This document shows positions 6,299-11,672 of a stretch of DNA of 64,000 bases, in pieces (the stretch's first letter is position 1; each line of letters starts with the position of its first letter). Location of the stretch: the NCBI GenBank assembly GCA_964601355.1, contig CAZRNB010000001.1, positions 825 through 64,824 of the forward strand, given 5' to 3'. Source of the stretch: an uncultured Pirellulales bacterium. Lineage in GTDB: Bacteria > Planctomycetota > Phycisphaerae > Sedimentisphaerales > Anaerobacaceae. Both the position numbers and the translations under genes were made by a program. Under the pieces are notes generated by a model, which was not told the origin of the DNA, searched no databases, and saw only the letters and a list, made by a program, of their open reading frames with translations.

Positions 6299-8122
6299 TT
6301 ATCCCAGCTCTTCGGAATCCAGAATACTCATAAAAGCTTCCTGGGGTATCTGTACCGAGCCTATGCTCTTCATACGCTTCTTGCCTTCTTTTTGCTTTTT
6401 GAGCACCTTCATCTTTCGAGTGACATCACCGCCGTAAAGTTTGGCGGTTACGTCCTTACGATAAGCCTTGACGGTTTCCCTGGCAATAATCTTGGCCCCG
6501 ATGGCCGCCTGGAGTGGTATCTCAAACTGATGTCGCGGGATTGACTTGCGAAGCCTGGTTATAAGTCTTCGGCCGCGAGCCTCAGCAGTGCTTCGATGAA
6601 CAATCAGAGAAAGTGCGTCAACAGCGACTTTGTTGACAAGAACATCCATCTTGACAAGGTCGCTCTTTTCAAAATCCATAAACTCGTAGTCCATCGTCGC
6701 ATAGCCGTGGCTTATGCCCTTAAGGACGTTGTAGAAATCATAGACTATTTCAGCGAGTGGTGCTTTGTATTCAAGCATGACTCGGGTTCCACTTATGTAA
6801 TCGGTCTTGAGCAGTCTGCATCGTCGGCTCTCGGCCAGCTTCATAATATCACCTATCGAGTCGCTTGCCGTGACTATCTCCAGTCGAACAAACGGCTCAC
6901 GAAGCTCGGCGACTTTTGTAATGTCGGGCAGCTCGCTTGGAGAATCAATCCTTGTTACCTTGCCGTCTTTAGTCAGGACTTCATAGCTGACAGTCGGAGC
7001 AGTTTGGATGACGTTTATACCATGCTCGCGCTCGAGCCGCTCCTGGATAATATCCATGTGCAGGAGTCCCAGGAAGCCGCACCGAAAACCAAATCCCAGA
7101 GCGGGTGAATTGTGTGCAGAAAAAGAGAAACTTGCGTCATTGGGCGCCAATTTCTCAAACGCTGCCCGAAGTTTGGGATAGTCGGTATTATTACCGGGAT
7201 AGAAATCGGAAAACACCATCTGCATCGGCGGCTTATAGCCGGCCAGCGCCTTGTGAGCAGGTTCAGCGTTATCGGTAATCGTATCCCCAATAGTGACGTC
7301 AGCCAATTCGCGAATATTGGCAATCACATAGCCGACCTCTCCTGTGCCCATTTCGTCCACAGGTTTCATTTTGGGTGTGAACTTGCCTAACTCAGTTATG
7401 GTATATGTCCTGCCATTGCTCATAAAGCGAATCTTCTGCCCAACTCTAAGGCTTCCTGCGAATACCCTGACATAGCATATTACGCCCCTATAGTCATCAC
7501 AGTGACTGTCGAAAACAAGCGCTGCTGTTTGCTCGCGGCTTCGGTCGGGAGGCGGCGGAAGAAGCGTTACTAATGCATCCAGCAGCTCCGGAACCCCCGT
7601 GCCTTTCTTGGCACTGATGTGAAAACATTCATTCTTCCTGATTCCTATTGTGTGCTCAATTTCCTCTGCGACAATTTCGGGCCGGGCCGATGGGAGGTCA
7701 ATCTTATTCACCACGCCAATAAGCTCCACGTTATTTTCAACAGCCAGATGCGCATTGGCAACCGTCTGGGCCTGGACACCCTGGGTCGCATCAACCACCA
7801 GAAGCGCCCCCTCGCATGCCGCCAAAGCACGTGAGACTTCATAATGAAAATCCACGTGCCCGGGCGTATCAATGAGGTTTAGCATGTACTTTTTTCCTTC
7901 GTGCTCGTAGTTGAGGGTGACAGCGGAAGCTTTGATAGTGATGCCGCGCTCTCGCTCAAGGTCCATATCATCGAGTATCTGGTCCTTCTTTTCACGCTCA
8001 GTCACCGCCCCGGTAAGCTCCAGTATCCGGTCGGCCAGTGTGCTTTTACCATGGTCGATATGTGCTATTATCGAGAAATTTCTTATATGTTCTGTACTCA
8101 TCAATATTTCACCAAAATGCAA
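6299..8122 (-). CDS. lepA: elongation factor 4 (LepA)
   Basis: IRNFSIIAHIDHGKSTLADR, DTPGHVDF, NKIDL and the LepA-specific C-terminus. An alternative start is at 8101 (MSTEH). Confidence 0.95.
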   Translation of the reverse strand: MHFGEILMSTEHIRNFSIIAHIDHGKSTLADRILELTGAVTEREKKDQILDDMDLERERGITIKASAVTLNYEHEGKKYMLNLIDTPGHVDFHYEVSRALAACEGALLVVDATQGVQAQTVANAHLAVENNVELIGVVNKIDLPSARPEIVAEEIEHTIGIRKNECFHISAKKGTGVPELLDALVTLLPPPPDRSREQTAALVFDSHCDDYRGVICYVRVFAGSLRVGQKIRFMSNGRTYTITELGKFTPKMKPVDEMGTGEVGYVIANIRELADVTIGDTITDNAEPAHKALAGYKPPMQMVFSDFYPGNNTDYPKLRAAFEKLAPNDASFSFSAHNSPALGFGFRCGFLGLLHMDIIQERLEREHGINVIQTAPTVSYEVLTKDGKVTRIDSPSELPDITKVAELREPFVRLEIVTASDSIGDIMKLAESRRCRLLKTDYISGTRVMLEYKAPLAEIVYDFYNVLKGISHGYATMDYEFMDFEKSDLVKMDVLVNKVAVDALSLIVHRSTAEARGRRLITRLRKSIPRHQFEIPLQAAIGAKIIARETVKAYRKDVTAKLYGGDVTRKMKVLKKQKEGKKRMKSIGSVQIPQEAFMSILDSEELG

Positions 8123-8176
8123 AAAATGTTATATTAACATCTTTTACAGTTAAAAGCAATTTATACTAAACGCTGG

Positions 8177-8449
8177 TTGTGTCCTAATTTGAAAAAAGAT
8201 TGGTACAATCAAACAGAAGAACCCATCAGAGAATTAGTTCGCCTGCTTTGTAATAATGGCTTTAATACGACTTGTTCTTGTGGACATGAGATGTCTGTTC
8301 AAATGGAATGGTATGGATTTGAAGAAGAAATCCGCAGACTTTATAACCCGCTGGGCCAAAACGGCTACAATAATTTTGAATTGCGCATATTTTGGCCCAG
8401 TTCAGGTATTGGTCAGTTTATGGAGGTCAAATTACTTAATGCTAATTAA
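8177..8449 (+). CDS. hypothetical small Cys-containing protein (non-ATG start)
   Basis: 90-aa ORF in the AT-rich islet. Its stop overlaps the convergent HNH gene by 4 nt. No recognisable family. Confidence 0.35.
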   Translation: MCPNLKKDWYNQTEEPIRELVRLLCNNGFNTTCSCGHEMSVQMEWYGFEEEIRRLYNPLGQNGYNNFELRIFWPSSGIGQFMEVKLLNAN

Positions 8450-8727
8450 CCACCATAAGAGCCAGTATTTTCATGGCACGGTATACAAAGGGCTTCGCAG
8501 TTGCTTAGTGTATCGCCACCACCTGCTGCAACGGAAGTTTTGTGATGAGCGTGCCAATTGTGAGCGGTCAAAGTCTTGTTACAACGACCTATATGTCCGC
8601 AAGTTATTCTGGTACATTCGCATTTGCCCCCAGAACGTCTCCATACTTGGTCAATAACAGATTGTGGAAATGCCATATTTTTTTTCTCCTTTAATAATTT
8701 TTTTGATAGAAATATGCGCCCAGCCAC
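8446..8727 (-). CDS. small HNH endonuclease-domain protein
   Basis: CECTRITCGH...HAHHKTSVAAGGGDTLSNCEALCIPCHENT fits the HNH (His-Asn-His, Cys4) motif. Confidence 0.7.
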   Translation of the reverse strand: MAGRIFLSKKLLKEKKNMAFPQSVIDQVWRRSGGKCECTRITCGHIGRCNKTLTAHNWHAHHKTSVAAGGGDTLSNCEALCIPCHENTGSYGG

Positions 8728-8959
8728 ATAACTGAGCGCATGATGTTTGAGCCTTTATAAGCCCTTGTAGGACATAAAAGTCCAATGGCGCTTAAAAGGC
8801 CGAACAAATACAATTTGTTTTGGAATGGCCGGCATCCTTTCCGAGAATCACTTGACTTATAGGGCAGGATAGCCGATAATGATGATAGATATACGGGGCT
8901 ATCCCGCCCCTGCCTAATGGTTTGATTCCCTTATGAACCATTAGGAGTAACAAAATTCA

Positions 8960-8985
8960 GGGCTACTCTTGACAGAGAGTAGCCC
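8960..8985 (-). terminator. stem-loop immediately 3' of the 239-aa ORF
   Basis: gggctactct/agagtagccc is a 10-bp perfect stem with a 6-nt loop. On the minus strand it is followed by ctgaattttgtt. Confidence 0.55.
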
Positions 8986-9704
8986 TACTCTTTTGGTTCT
9001 TCTACTGCATTAACTTTTTTATAAAAATCCATAAAATCTTTGATTGTATCTAAATCCTTTATGGTTGGTTCTCCACTTGGAATAATCAACGTGGCAATCC
9101 TTCCTTTTAATGGTATATTCAAAACAAAATCACCTTCTTTGGGTTTTTGCAAAGGTGGTTTGGGTATTACTGGCGTTGAGGGCGAAAAGATTGGAAACTC
9201 TAATTCTTTATTCTCAACAGACTTTACTTCTGGTAGTTTTACCAATTCTCTCGTTTCTCTGAAAGACTTTATTAGTTTCTTTGATGATTCCTCGGTATAG
9301 GGCACTGGTCTCCTCAATAGATAGGCTTTCAAAGTATCATCGGAAGGTAAGTCAGTAGGATATTGGTTTATCAATTCACGGAAAATCGTTGGACGGTTAG
9401 CAGCTTCTTGAATGGCTCTTGCTCTATCATCAATGGATTTTGGAAGCAGTATATCTAACCCTAATTCCGTAATTTTAATTTTTTGCTTGCCTGCTCGTTC
9501 TATTAGCCCAAACTGTGCAACGGATGCAATCGTTTGTAGCGCAGGCCCGCTTACGCTATTATATCCCCACGCCTTGACCGCCACATCATTAACTACAGGT
9601 GCTGTCTTTTCACGTTCATATAAACTTTTTAACTTTTCTATGGCAGTGCTTAAACCCATACTTGGATAATTAGGACTTCTTTGGTATTTCTTTTTTTCAG
9701 CCAT
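8985..9704 (-). CDS. hypothetical protein
   Basis: 239-aa ORF with good coding look, in the AT-rich islet. No family recognised. Confidence 0.55.
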   Translation of the reverse strand: MAEKKKYQRSPNYPSMGLSTAIEKLKSLYEREKTAPVVNDVAVKAWGYNSVSGPALQTIASVAQFGLIERAGKQKIKITELGLDILLPKSIDDRARAIQEAANRPTIFRELINQYPTDLPSDDTLKAYLLRRPVPYTEESSKKLIKSFRETRELVKLPEVKSVENKELEFPIFSPSTPVIPKPPLQKPKEGDFVLNIPLKGRIATLIIPSGEPTIKDLDTIKDFMDFYKKVNAVEEPKE

Positions 9705-9848
9705 AAATGGCCTCCTTATAATATTTGGTCAATGTCAGGTTTTGATATATTATACATAGACCGAGATATAGCACAAGATAAATCTTCACTAAATTGAATA
9801 TTATTTCAAATTATTCTAAGTATTCTCTTGGCAGTTATAGAATAGGTG

Positions 9849-10223
9849 TTATGATTGTAAATGAAAAGTAAATAAAAAGGCCCCGTTGGGCAACATGCAA
9901 GTAACTACACAACAGGGCGATTGTTTAGGGCTTGGAACGGACTGAATCAGCCGCAACAGGATTTCGACATTGGCAACATCAGTAATCCGCATTTTGCCGT
10001 CTTCAGCAACCATTTTCAACCGGTTACATTTTGTAACCGTTTCACTGCCTTCTTTGTTCAGCCTGTTTTTCAAGACTTTCCAATAGTTTCTGGCAGCCTG
10101 GAAATCAGGCTGCTGTATCAGAACCTGTATAATATCCACTACTGAGAAATACCATGTTTCTGTTTCTTCATCGTACAGACGACGGATTTTGTAGTCTTCA
10201 AAAATGGCTAAATTGTTCTTCAT
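9849..10223 (-). CDS. Bro-N-like (phage antirepressor N-terminal) domain protein, probably C-terminally truncated
   Basis: IFEDYKIRRLYDEETETWYFSVVDIIQVL...ARNYWKVLKNRL...KMVAEDGKMRITDVANVEILLRLIQSVPSPK resembles Bro-N/DinD-type proteins. The tail QSPCCVVTCMLPNGAFLFTFHLQS looks like out-of-family read-through. Confidence 0.5.
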   Translation of the reverse strand: MKNNLAIFEDYKIRRLYDEETETWYFSVVDIIQVLIQQPDFQAARNYWKVLKNRLNKEGSETVTKCNRLKMVAEDGKMRITDVANVEILLRLIQSVPSPKQSPCCVVTCMLPNGAFLFTFHLQS

Positions 10224-10517
10224 AACAACTCCCTAATTGTATTCAGGTTTTCCGCAGACTGTTTACGCCAGAGGCGTATAAATCTGCCAGTACTGGCCCC
10301 TGCGTCTCCCGACGCAAGTCGGGGCAGCGGGTAAGAAGTTCCCGATGTTTCTTCAATCGTCTGCCGGACGGCAATGTTGACGGACGAAGGTATGATTCTC
10401 TGCCCCCGGCCTTAAAGTATCAATATATCGTTAAACCAAGGAAGAAAACAAGCTTTTTGCGCAGCTATATAAAAAACAGCGTTAATCTGCGTTAATCAGT
10501 GTCTAAAAAATCCCATT

Positions 10518-11672
10518 CTAAACGCCTGCAAAATCGCATAGGATCGAATCAGCAATTCCAAACGCTTGGCGCGTAAGGAAAATCCGTCCATGGTCGGTAT
10601 TAATTAACCCCAGTTTCTGATACGTCCGAATCGGTTCTGCAAATAGCTGCATGGCGTCAAAACCAGTCCGTGTTTTGAATTCCACCAAATCAATCCCACA
10701 CCGGCGACGCAGATTCAGCACCGCTGTCTCATAAGCCCGTTCGACATCGCTGAGCGTTTCACTGGCCGCGACCACACTTGCCCCGCTTGCAACTGCCTCG
10801 GCATACCTGTTTATATCAGCGAAATTTGTATTTCTTGTCCCATTCATGTACGAAGCTGCACCAGGCCCAATCCCGACATAACCTCCGTTCGCCCAGTAGT
10901 TAAGATTATGTCTGCACTTGAAACCATCCCTCGCGAAATTTGATATTTCGTACTGGTCAATGCCGGCCCTTTCAAGCTCGTCAATTGTTAGCTCGTACAT
11001 TGCCCTGTCGGTATCTTCATCGACGGGTTTTATCAGCCCAGCCGCAAGTTCCCTGCCAAGAGGAGTCTGGTCTTCGTAAGTAAGGCTGTAAGCGCTTACA
11101 TGGTCTATTGCCAGTTTGATTGCCGAGCGGAGATTGTGCTTCCATGAGTCGAGACAAGAGCCCGGAACGGCGAAAATCAAATCCAGACTGATATTGTCAA
11201 AACCCGCCGTCCTGCCCTGTTGGACCGATTTACGTATGCAATCGACAGTATGGCCCCTACCCAAAAAATCCAGCTCCCGCTGAATAAAAGATTGTGCACC
11301 GATTGAGAGCCGATTTACCCCTGCTCTGCGTAACTCATTAAGCAGTGTCTTATCCACTTGGCCGGGATTGATCTCGACTGTAAACTCCTCTGCCGCCGGG
11401 CACCGCAGCGTCAGCCGGTTAACCAGCCGAAGTATAAGTTCCTGCGTAAGGGAGCTTGGACTTCCACCGCCGATGTAAAGGGTTTTTATGCTCTCGCCCA
11501 GTTCATATCGCTCCATCTCGGCAATCATCGTGCTGACAATAGCACCTGCATCGTATTTAGCGATAGGCTCGGAGTAGAAGCCGCAGTAGCGGCACTTGGT
11601 CCGGCAAAATGGAACGTGAACATATAAGCCGGTACCGTCTGAACAAGATTTTGAGCTGCAATCACCTGACAT
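10518..11672 (-). CDS. hemW: radical-SAM heme chaperone HemW (oxygen-independent coproporphyrinogen-III-oxidase-like)
   Basis: LYVHVPFCRTKCRYCGF radical-SAM CxxxCxxC, GGGSPS and an HemN_C-like tail. Confidence 0.9.
   Translation of the reverse strand: MSGDCSSKSCSDGTGLYVHVPFCRTKCRYCGFYSEPIAKYDAGAIVSTMIAEMERYELGESIKTLYIGGGSPSSLTQELILRLVNRLTLRCPAAEEFTVEINPGQVDKTLLNELRRAGVNRLSIGAQSFIQRELDFLGRGHTVDCIRKSVQQGRTAGFDNISLDLIFAVPGSCLDSWKHNLRSAIKLAIDHVSAYSLTYEDQTPLGRELAAGLIKPVDEDTDRAMYELTIDELERAGIDQYEISNFARDGFKCRHNLNYWANGGYVGIGPGAASYMNGTRNTNFADINRYAEAVASGASVVAASETLSDVERAYETAVLNLRRRCGIDLVEFKTRTGFDAMQLFAEPIRTYQKLGLINTDHGRIFLTRQAFGIADSILCDFAGV

Follow-up and report, generated by a model that had tools for sequence, protein, structure and literature searches.

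A variable slot between lepA and hemW in a planctomycetal genome, holding a candidate nuclease cassette and a conserved structured element

The 2.4 kb between lepA and hemW in the genome of an uncultured Pirellulales bacterium (Planctomycetota; Phycisphaerae; Sedimentisphaerales; Anaerobacaceae) are an insertion in a slot whose contents differ among related genomes. The islet was analyzed within a stretch of 64,000 nucleotides (nt), here called the window (GenBank assembly GCA_964601355.1, contig CAZRNB010000001.1, positions 825 to 64,824, forward strand), which is contig 1 of a 3.1-Mb, 229-contig metagenome-assembled genome (MAG; G000). Within the islet, a gene of the protein family fam239 is followed by a structured element that ends in a predicted terminator, then by a gene for a minimal HNH nuclease whose stop codon overlaps that of a convergent gene for an 86-amino-acid (aa) protein, p90. 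We propose, with the chances about evenly balanced, that these parts form a conditional toxic-nuclease cassette in an integrase-less defense or addiction slot, with the leader terminator and an inhibitor protein as its two gates. A first-pass annotation of the sequence had described an AT-rich islet with four open reading frames (ORFs). The ORFs stand where it placed them; two of the sizes do not, the HNH protein having 76 rather than 93 residues and its partner 86 rather than 90. That annotation overlooked that the spacer between the fam239 and HNH genes is a conserved structured element and that fam239 is a very large family. The features of the region are as follows.

6299-8122, minus strand: lepA, left flank (Pfam GTP_EFTU, E = 2e-57; LepA_C, 3e-48; 96% aa identity in G013)
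8163-8173: left border, an 11-nt copy (10 of 11 positions) of the hemW terminus, ATACTAAACGC; source 10515-10525, ATTCTAAACGC
8189-8449 (ORF open from 8177), plus strand: 86-aa partner p90, with 20 close homologs and relatives on 20 viral contigs
8446-8676, minus strand: minimal 76-aa HNH nuclease (PF01844, 2.7e-6), stop codon overlapping that of p90 (TTAA)
8685-8986, minus strand: structured element of ∼280 nt, identified by blastn, covariation, covariance model and terminator scan; hairpin at the fam239 stop codon (8959-8986), two-hairpin core (8855-8952), terminator hairpin (8714-8741)
8985-9704, minus strand: basic 239-aa protein of fam239, characterized by profile search, AlphaFold2 (AF2) model and motif conservation
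9849-10223, minus strand: Bro-N stub (PADLOC PDC-S13, 3.4e-42, profile positions 2-102 of 286; phrog_15286)
10296-10333: copy of a dispersed ∼40-bp repeat, within a 68-bp stretch (10264-10331) that has no counterpart in G013
10518-11672, minus strand: hemW, right flank (TIGR00539 HemW, E = 2.4e-79; 86% aa identity in G013)

The lepA-hemW slot

Synteny was compared through the positions of lepA and hemW in 40 relatives. In three members of the same family (G002, G006 and G011), the two genes are separated by an empty gap of 17 to 47 bp, so the 2.4 kb found here are an insertion. Direct adjacency is the ancestral state, in keeping with the first-pass remark that the two genes are frequent direct neighbors. 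The closest relative, G013 (lepA 96% identical at the aa level), has a gap of 4.4 kb that holds a 1066-aa helicase-nuclease and a 105-aa Bro-N stub adjoining hemW. The large protein is an AAA_11/AAA_12 helicase fused to an MTES_1575/DUF559 nuclease and matches the PADLOC models MkoC (2e-61), PDC-S37 (7e-56) and Hhe. The 2.0-kb gap of G039 (lepA 87% aa identity) holds a type II restriction-modification (R-M) pair, an MvaI/BcnI restriction enzyme and an N4/N6 methylase; there, the contig end overlaps the hemW terminus. The gap is a variable slot, with three fillings (G000, G013 and G039) and an empty state in three other genomes. Recognized defense cargo occurs in G013 and G039, and the window has only a truncated PDC-S13 by PADLOC. 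With these fillings, the PDC-S13 stub and a phage family for p90, the first-pass suggestion of phage-derived or defense-type content is supported. The 2.5-kb gap of a further family member, G009, was considered as defense cargo and rejected, as it contains housekeeping genes (ubiE-like, CPBP and UbiA).

The AT richness reported for the islet is real but moderate. The G+C content is 0.396 for 8123-10517, against a window mean of 0.465, and both of the counts quoted earlier are exact (9001-9060, 13 of 60 positions; 7501-7560, 37 of 60). Positions 8172-9943, the section without a counterpart in the nearest relative, have a G+C content of 0.389 and fall in the lowest 1.4% of segments of that length (1772 bp; mean, 0.465; standard deviation, 0.029). 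Three sections account for most of the bias: the 86-aa gene, with 0.37; the 239-aa gene, with 0.376; and the spacer at 9705-9848, with 0.285.

Another account of these data would be that the islet is not foreign and consists of native lineage-specific genes or of a misassembled metagenome bin. The fragmentation of the MAG into 229 contigs would allow this, as would the housekeeping genes of G009, with which the slot need not contain foreign DNA. Against it, collinearity with G013 extends through the flanks and stops at sharp break points, the G+C content is as low as just described, and the cargo genes were not found among the 40 relatives searched. Moreover, the 239-aa protein is seen on three contigs, the longest of 86 kb, and has homologs in unrelated contexts. 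We regard this account as very improbable. A close homolog of one cargo gene belongs to a Sedimentisphaerales MAG.

In a blastn comparison, the window and G013 are homologous up to 8171, again at 9944-10263 (the Bro-N gene, 81%) and once more from 10332. The left border carries the short hemW-end copy listed above, and the chance of a match of this kind at both borders within ±10 nt is ∼0.004. G013 has a longer duplicate of the hemW end, 37 bp (L010, 5824-5860; other copy, 6369-6405), joined to its Bro-N stub at an 8-nt microhomology, GAATCAGC. This junction is a clean illegitimate-recombination scar in a sister genome. As attachment-site-type repeats, both the 11-nt and the 37-bp copies are short, and no recombinase is present to use them: no tyrosine or serine recombinase (integrase) ORF was found in 8123-10517 or in the G013 and G039 fillings, and no tRNA was found in the whole window, in agreement with the first-pass annotation. 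We infer that cassettes were inserted and replaced at the 3′ end of hemW without an integrase, and that the copies of this end at their borders were left in the process.

The Bro-N gene is the oldest layer of the slot. Homology of its 124-aa ORF is confined to residues 2 to 103, and the last ∼21 codons are unrelated read-through. Over aa 1 to 104, it is 81% identical to a full-length 279-aa copy in G029, which matches PDC-S13 at 2e-122 and adjoins a SIR2/AbiH-like gene. The window ORF falls short of the full PDC-S13 length (∼286 aa); the first third alone remains, as the first-pass call of a truncated gene implied, so the PDC-S13 of the window cannot work. No second Bro-N copy or C-terminal remnant was found anywhere in G000. 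The gene is cut at different codons in G000 and G013; later events therefore wore down an older PDC-S13 cassette, of which a dead stub is left. The more recent layer, from 8172 to ∼9920, would be a single cassette of fam239 gene, structured 3′ element with terminator, HNH gene and convergent 86-aa gene. The PDC systems are themselves candidates, proposed through "guilt-by-embedding" and untested (Payne et al. 2024, bioRxiv 10.1101/2024.01.29.577857). A literature search on PDC-S13, PDC-M21, PDC-S37 and lepA/hemN hot spots found nothing specific.

Three further observations concern the edges of the slot. The dispersed repeat between the Bro-N stub and hemW has at least 11 copies in G000 and many in relatives, and it looks like a repetitive extragenic palindromic sequence or a miniature inverted-repeat transposable element. 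Just 3′ of the hemW stop codon, positions 10466-10512 hold a short motif that matches dozens of sites in relatives at 83 to 100% identity and that may be a further dispersed repeat or a widespread element of terminator type. The lepA ORF is listed from TTG 8122; relatives align from ATG 8101 (MSTEHIRNF), so the start is probably at 8101 and the upstream region is 21 nt longer.

The fam239 gene and its structured 3′ element

In a profile search with the 239-aa protein, 5,801 representative clusters passed a cutoff of E ≤ 1e-3, and 1,087 passed one of E ≤ 1e-30. Members are mostly 230 to 270 aa long and share a nearly invariant N-terminal R-S-P-x-Y-P motif. The first-pass annotation recognized no family for this protein or for p90, and neither matches anything in Pfam, NCBIfam, PHROGs or PADLOC. 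The AF2 model of the 239-aa protein (predicted local distance difference test score [pLDDT], 69.5) comprises a winged helix-turn-helix (wHTH) with a helical region (residues 18 to 155), a disordered proline-rich linker and a small C-terminal β-β-α domain. A Foldseek search with this model returned wHTH regulators only, at E of ∼0.1. Against the PDB, the best Foldseek E values were 0.02 for the 86-aa model and 0.12 for the 239-aa model, and sequence profiles of the PDB gave no match to either protein. Neither was matched among the isolated phages of INPHARED, and among plasmids there was one weak match, in Tistrella.

The family is rare and patchy in the phylum, with members in 5 of 401 genomes and none at a convincing level in the 40 relatives. 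No fam239 relative was found on viral contigs, searched with one usable family pattern. The neighbors of fam239 genes include PDC-M21B and PDC-M21A in ∼10 of 45 loci, IS1-family transposases in four and a HEC-09-like NYN gene in one. At the metagenome loci L092 to L104, a fam239 branch is regularly and divergently flanked by the PDC-M21 genes (A, 176 aa; B, 228 aa, nucleotidyltransferase-like), and fam239 may be an unrecognized third gene of the PDC-M21 candidate. A 251-aa gene 5′ of the HNH gene in L068 was considered as fam239-like and rejected (hhalign E, 0.14).

What separates the fam239 and HNH genes is conserved beyond this genome. By blastn, the element is 77.6% identical over 125 nt to the corresponding spacer of L073 (E = 6e-23), and it also aligns 5′ of the HNH gene in L054. 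In the three-sequence comparison, 14 of 61 predicted pairs had changed on both sides, compared with 6.3 ± 1.9 in shuffled alignments (0 of 500 as high) and 0 to 2 in slid controls. A covariance model was then built on the two-hairpin core (window 8855-8952). It matches 32 to 43 nt 3′ of the fam239 stop codon in L017, L023 (partially), L025, L072, L073 and L074, where the fam239 proteins are only 32 to 62% identical to that of the window. In phage locus L054, the match precedes the HNH gene. No match to the core was found in some 30 more distant fam239 loci. When eight sequences were aligned to the model, 92.7% of cells paired and 13 of 23 pairs had changed on both sides (shuffles, 5.6 ± 1.6, 0 of 500; slid controls, 1 to 4); helix 1 of the core contributes 8 compensatory pairs of 10. 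Several substitutions keep G-U pairs, which could not pair on the opposite strand; this strand specificity favors an RNA in the fam239/HNH sense.

Seven loci conserve the element over its full ∼280 nt, including the sequence blocks GGAAAGGA and TGGACTTTTATGTCC. Its end, ∼270 nt after the fam239 stop codon, is a predicted terminator, a GC-rich hairpin with an A/U tract behind it (8714-8741). The hairpin lies ∼35 nt before the HNH start codon, with the ribosome-binding site of that gene directly after the terminator. The next gene, whose ribosome-binding site comes directly after the terminator, differs among loci. It encodes the HNH protein in the window and L073 (truncated in the latter), there is none in L025, and L072 (2847-2984) and L074 (1505-1648) have in its place, behind the terminator, a gene for a very basic peptide of 45 to 47 aa (MxRNE(K/R)TSKRV...). 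In L017, the element is directly followed by 75 nt (7298-7372) that ARAGORN identifies as a tRNA-Ser whose anticodon, ACT, is unusual; this may be an odd tRNA, a sequence resembling one or a target of integration.

G000 has one copy of the element. No credible Rfam match was obtained for the window region (E ≤ 1) or for L072 to L074 (E ≤ 0.1); matches to XIST_A and Cyano-2 in the window fell under their gathering scores and are spurious.

The HNH nuclease and its convergent partner

The HNH gene starts at ATG 8676, and all 83 relatives found are likewise ∼75 to 80 aa long and begin with MAF(P/S). The protein scores 27.9 bits with PF01844 (cutoff, 21.4); its catalytic H..N..H is intact, and the WHAHH, SNCE and PCH motifs and the CxC/CxxC pairs align. 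A domain library scan found no NUMOD, AP2 or IENR-type DNA-binding domain, only the 76-aa catalytic core. The start of p90, TTG 8189, aligns with the ATG of relatives and gives 86 aa. Its family has the invariant motif W-Y..IE.P.R..V.LLRNNGFNT..SC.H (SCGH in the window), and the AF2 model (pLDDT, 83; isoelectric point [pI], 5.05) has an α-ββ-α-ββ order. No fold match was found in the PDB or BFVD, where the best E value was 1.3e-3, to an uncharacterized protein.

In cellular MAG loci, close p90 homologs are almost always followed by an opposite-strand 76-aa HNH gene, so the co-occurrence that the first-pass annotation had proposed to look for holds in further loci. The genes are convergent with overlapping stop codons (TTAA or CTAA) in the window, L017 to L019 (the same as L055), L021 to L022, L054 and L058, and this junction at the stop codon is kept in five loci. 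L056 has the same layout on a contig that ends within the HNH gene. Between copies, the proportion of synonymous differences (pS) is 0.36 to 0.88, near saturation; that of nonsynonymous differences (pN) is 0.06 to 0.29 (0.13 to 0.22 for p90 alone), and the ratio of nonsynonymous to synonymous substitution rates for the HNH gene is 0.05 to 0.5. Given near-saturated pS and low pN, we conclude that both genes are kept by selection.

More distant relatives of the HNH gene, in L065, L068, L106 and L107, are also convergent and stop overlapping with a gene for an acidic protein, here of 115 to 121 aa (P118 type), whose motif is VW.KVNA.VD..IA.IV..L....GL.T..SC(E/Q)G....YVYF..GDW. The p90-type and P118-type partners are possibly distant homologs, to judge from their profiles. 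In the HNH tree, p90-partnered genes form one clade nested among P118-partnered ones, a topology that fits long co-inheritance with the partner. HNH proteins have a pI of 8.2 to 8.8, and partners mostly 4.7 to 5.6. The pairing recurs in every examined locus where the HNH lineage has a partner. The catalytic histidines are gone from the HNH protein of L058 (4264-4494), where HAHH has become HARY and PCH has become PCY; its partner looks intact, so the pair is apparently disarmed. Two weak profile matches fall on the same partner motif and were treated as chance: TYW3 (E = 0.066), over G-L-x-T-x-x-S-C in three of the four 115- to 121-aa partners, and an RlmI-type methyltransferase strand, "SCSHH," with the 86-aa family (E = 0.28).

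The 86-aa family is a phage family. Members occur on 20 contigs of IMG/VR, in some cases as two copies, in arrays of codirectional small genes and never with this HNH gene; a prophage carrying ERF and YqaJ has a member as well. Locus L054, too, is a phage region (RusA, methylase, TerS and TerL by PHROGs), in which the HNH gene is the sole one on the opposite strand. Among close p90 homologs, those of L017, L021, L054, L056 and L058 have the HNH gene, and those of L020, L057 and the viral contigs do not: a presence/absence polymorphism of the homing type at a fixed site beside the p90 gene.

These observations raise the possibility that the islet is phage debris, decaying prophage or transduced DNA without function for the host. 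The 86-aa gene would then be a phage accessory gene, the HNH gene a selfish free-standing homing endonuclease at its 3′ end, and fam239 with its element an unrelated neighbor. Consistent with this explanation are the viral and prophage copies of p90 without the HNH gene, the lone orientation of that gene in L054, the polymorphism with its break exactly at the stop codon, and the loss of catalytic histidines in L058, as in decaying homing genes. Furthermore, the loci share the HNH-p90 pair alone and never the flanks, and Bro-N is a typical phage domain. Several findings nevertheless argue against debris. The 76-aa protein is a bare catalytic core without a DNA-recognition domain, the same convergent stop overlap occurs with the very different P118 partner in chromosomal loci, and the HNH tree tracks partner type, which suggests long co-inheritance over hopping. 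The pair has been kept by purifying selection while its synonymous divergence reached saturation, and the conserved leader and terminator also accompany the HNH gene in L054 and L073. We consider the debris explanation somewhat doubtful, yet it is the main rival of the cassette and a serious one.

L054 also bears on an explanation by DNA packaging, in which the HNH protein would be a remnant of an HK97 gp74-type terminase accessory and the element a cos/pac-type DNA site or a late-operon regulatory region, the two having been captured together from a phage such as L054. In that locus, ∼1 kb separates the element, HNH gene and 86-aa gene from the genes for small and large terminase, which lie downstream. 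Kala and colleagues are said to have reported, in PNAS in 2014 (cited in PMC9410871), that small HNH proteins encoded beside terminases are a packaging component, which we count in favor of this explanation. However, the HNH gene of L054 is on the strand opposite to those terminase genes, and the window has no terminase, so that neither locus shows the arrangement of a phage HNH-terminase module. Six of the seven other element loci have fam239 and no phage structural genes, P118-type pairs occur in chromosomal contexts without terminases, and the G-U pairs form on the HNH-sense strand only, fitting RNA better than DNA. A packaging origin is, in our assessment, improbable.

The proposed cassette and its relation to known systems

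The co-occurrence counts rest on tens of loci, ∼45 for fam239 and ∼16 for the HNH gene. The window has all four parts, as does L017, in which an IS1 lies between the pair and fam239. L073 has fam239, the element and a truncated HNH gene with no partner gene following, and in phage locus L054 the HNH gene and its partner occur with the element. Two links, of fam239 with its element and of the HNH gene with its partner, are well supported and recur in independent loci; the link between the two units, seen in three to four independent loci, is no more than suggestive.

In the conditional cassette that we propose, the HNH protein would be a nonspecific, toxic DNase under two controls. Its transcription would depend on read-through of the leader terminator, governed by the structured RNA and/or the fam239 protein, and its activity would be held down after translation by the acidic partner, acting as an inhibitor or immunity protein (Im) like that of a colicin DNase. 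Release of the nuclease upon phage infection or cassette loss would result in abortive-infection or addiction behavior, and solo partner copies in phages could serve as counterdefense. A stronger version seems unlikely to us: that fam239, the RNA and a terminator-gated effector make up a new RNA-containing conflict system, with the partner as nuclease inhibitor and its phage copies as counterdefense. The RNA and/or the winged-helix protein would in that case sense infection and permit read-through into a toxic effector, which would be the HNH protein here and the basic 45- to 47-aa peptide in L072 and L074.

Several points weigh against the proposed cassette. The HNH gene is present in only 3 of ∼45 fam239 loci, and most examined HNH loci have no fam239, so the cassette may be two units that are often neighbors. 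The counts of covarying pairs come from eight sequences whose alignment was itself made to fit the model; equally, the element may act as a site in the DNA. The p90 and P118 profiles align only weakly over the motif region (hhalign E, 0.002 to 0.008; probability, 5 to 15%), and the partner in L054 is basic (pI, 8.6). A type II toxin-antitoxin (TA) pair would be a cotranscribed operon; the genes are convergent in 5 of 5 p90-type and 4 of 4 P118-type loci, a layout unusual for TA pairs. PADLOC- and DefenseFinder-type libraries hold none of the four components, the dead stub aside, and what we say of the functions of those components is read from their sequences, in a genome that is itself a MAG.

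To our knowledge, almost nothing is known of hot spots in Planctomycetota. The islet is a further core-gene slot that swaps conflict genes and helps to map such sites in the phylum, yet as such it is unsurprising. Three of its parts are of wider interest. The fam239 family, with thousands of clusters and an RSPxYP motif, has no library entry and keeps company with defense candidates. The ∼280-nt element has good covariation, lies outside Rfam and is tied to one fam239 branch, with a terminator before the next gene. The minimal HNH lineage is consistently tail to tail with a small partner whose relatives are common in phages. Any of these parts could add a new nuclease-inhibitor pair or a new riboregulated toxic cassette to the defense catalog.

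Among described systems, the colicin E7 and E9 HNH DNase/Im pairs and polymorphic-toxin pairs likewise place a basic HNH protein beside a small (∼85- to 120-aa) acidic one, and there as here the partner diverges faster than the nuclease. Unlike those pairs, the one described here has no translocation or receptor domains, its partner is predicted to be α/β rather than a four-helix Im fold, and its genes are convergent with overlapping stop codons and not cotranscribed; inhibition, known for colicins, is for our pair a prediction. Type III TA systems of the ToxIN kind share a structured noncoding element and an intrinsic terminator directly before a putatively toxic gene. They differ in that our element has no tandem-repeat RNA, the protein is a DNase-type HNH and not an endoribonuclease, and a fam239 gene precedes the RNA.

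Free-standing phage HNH homing endonucleases resemble the nuclease in its small ORF, its phage association and its presence/absence polymorphism by a phage gene, and HK97 gp74-type packaging factors in the terminase genes nearby in one phage (L054). In contrast to both, a DNA-binding module is unrecognizable here, the pairing with a partner is stable over deep divergence, and copies are mostly chromosomal and terminase free. Residues 2 to 103 of the Bro-N stub fit the PADLOC model of PDC-S13 at E of 3e-42, whereas the C-terminal two-thirds are absent. For the slot itself, the closest likeness is to R-M units, for which "insertion with long target duplication" and linked rearrangements have been described (Furuta, Abe and Kobayashi 2010, NAR, PMC2853133). 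The duplicate here is very short, and the current cargo is without a recognized intact defense system; in its conserved flanks, its cassette swaps between sister genomes, its lack of an integrase and its copies of the target end at the borders, the lepA-hemW slot resembles those insertions.

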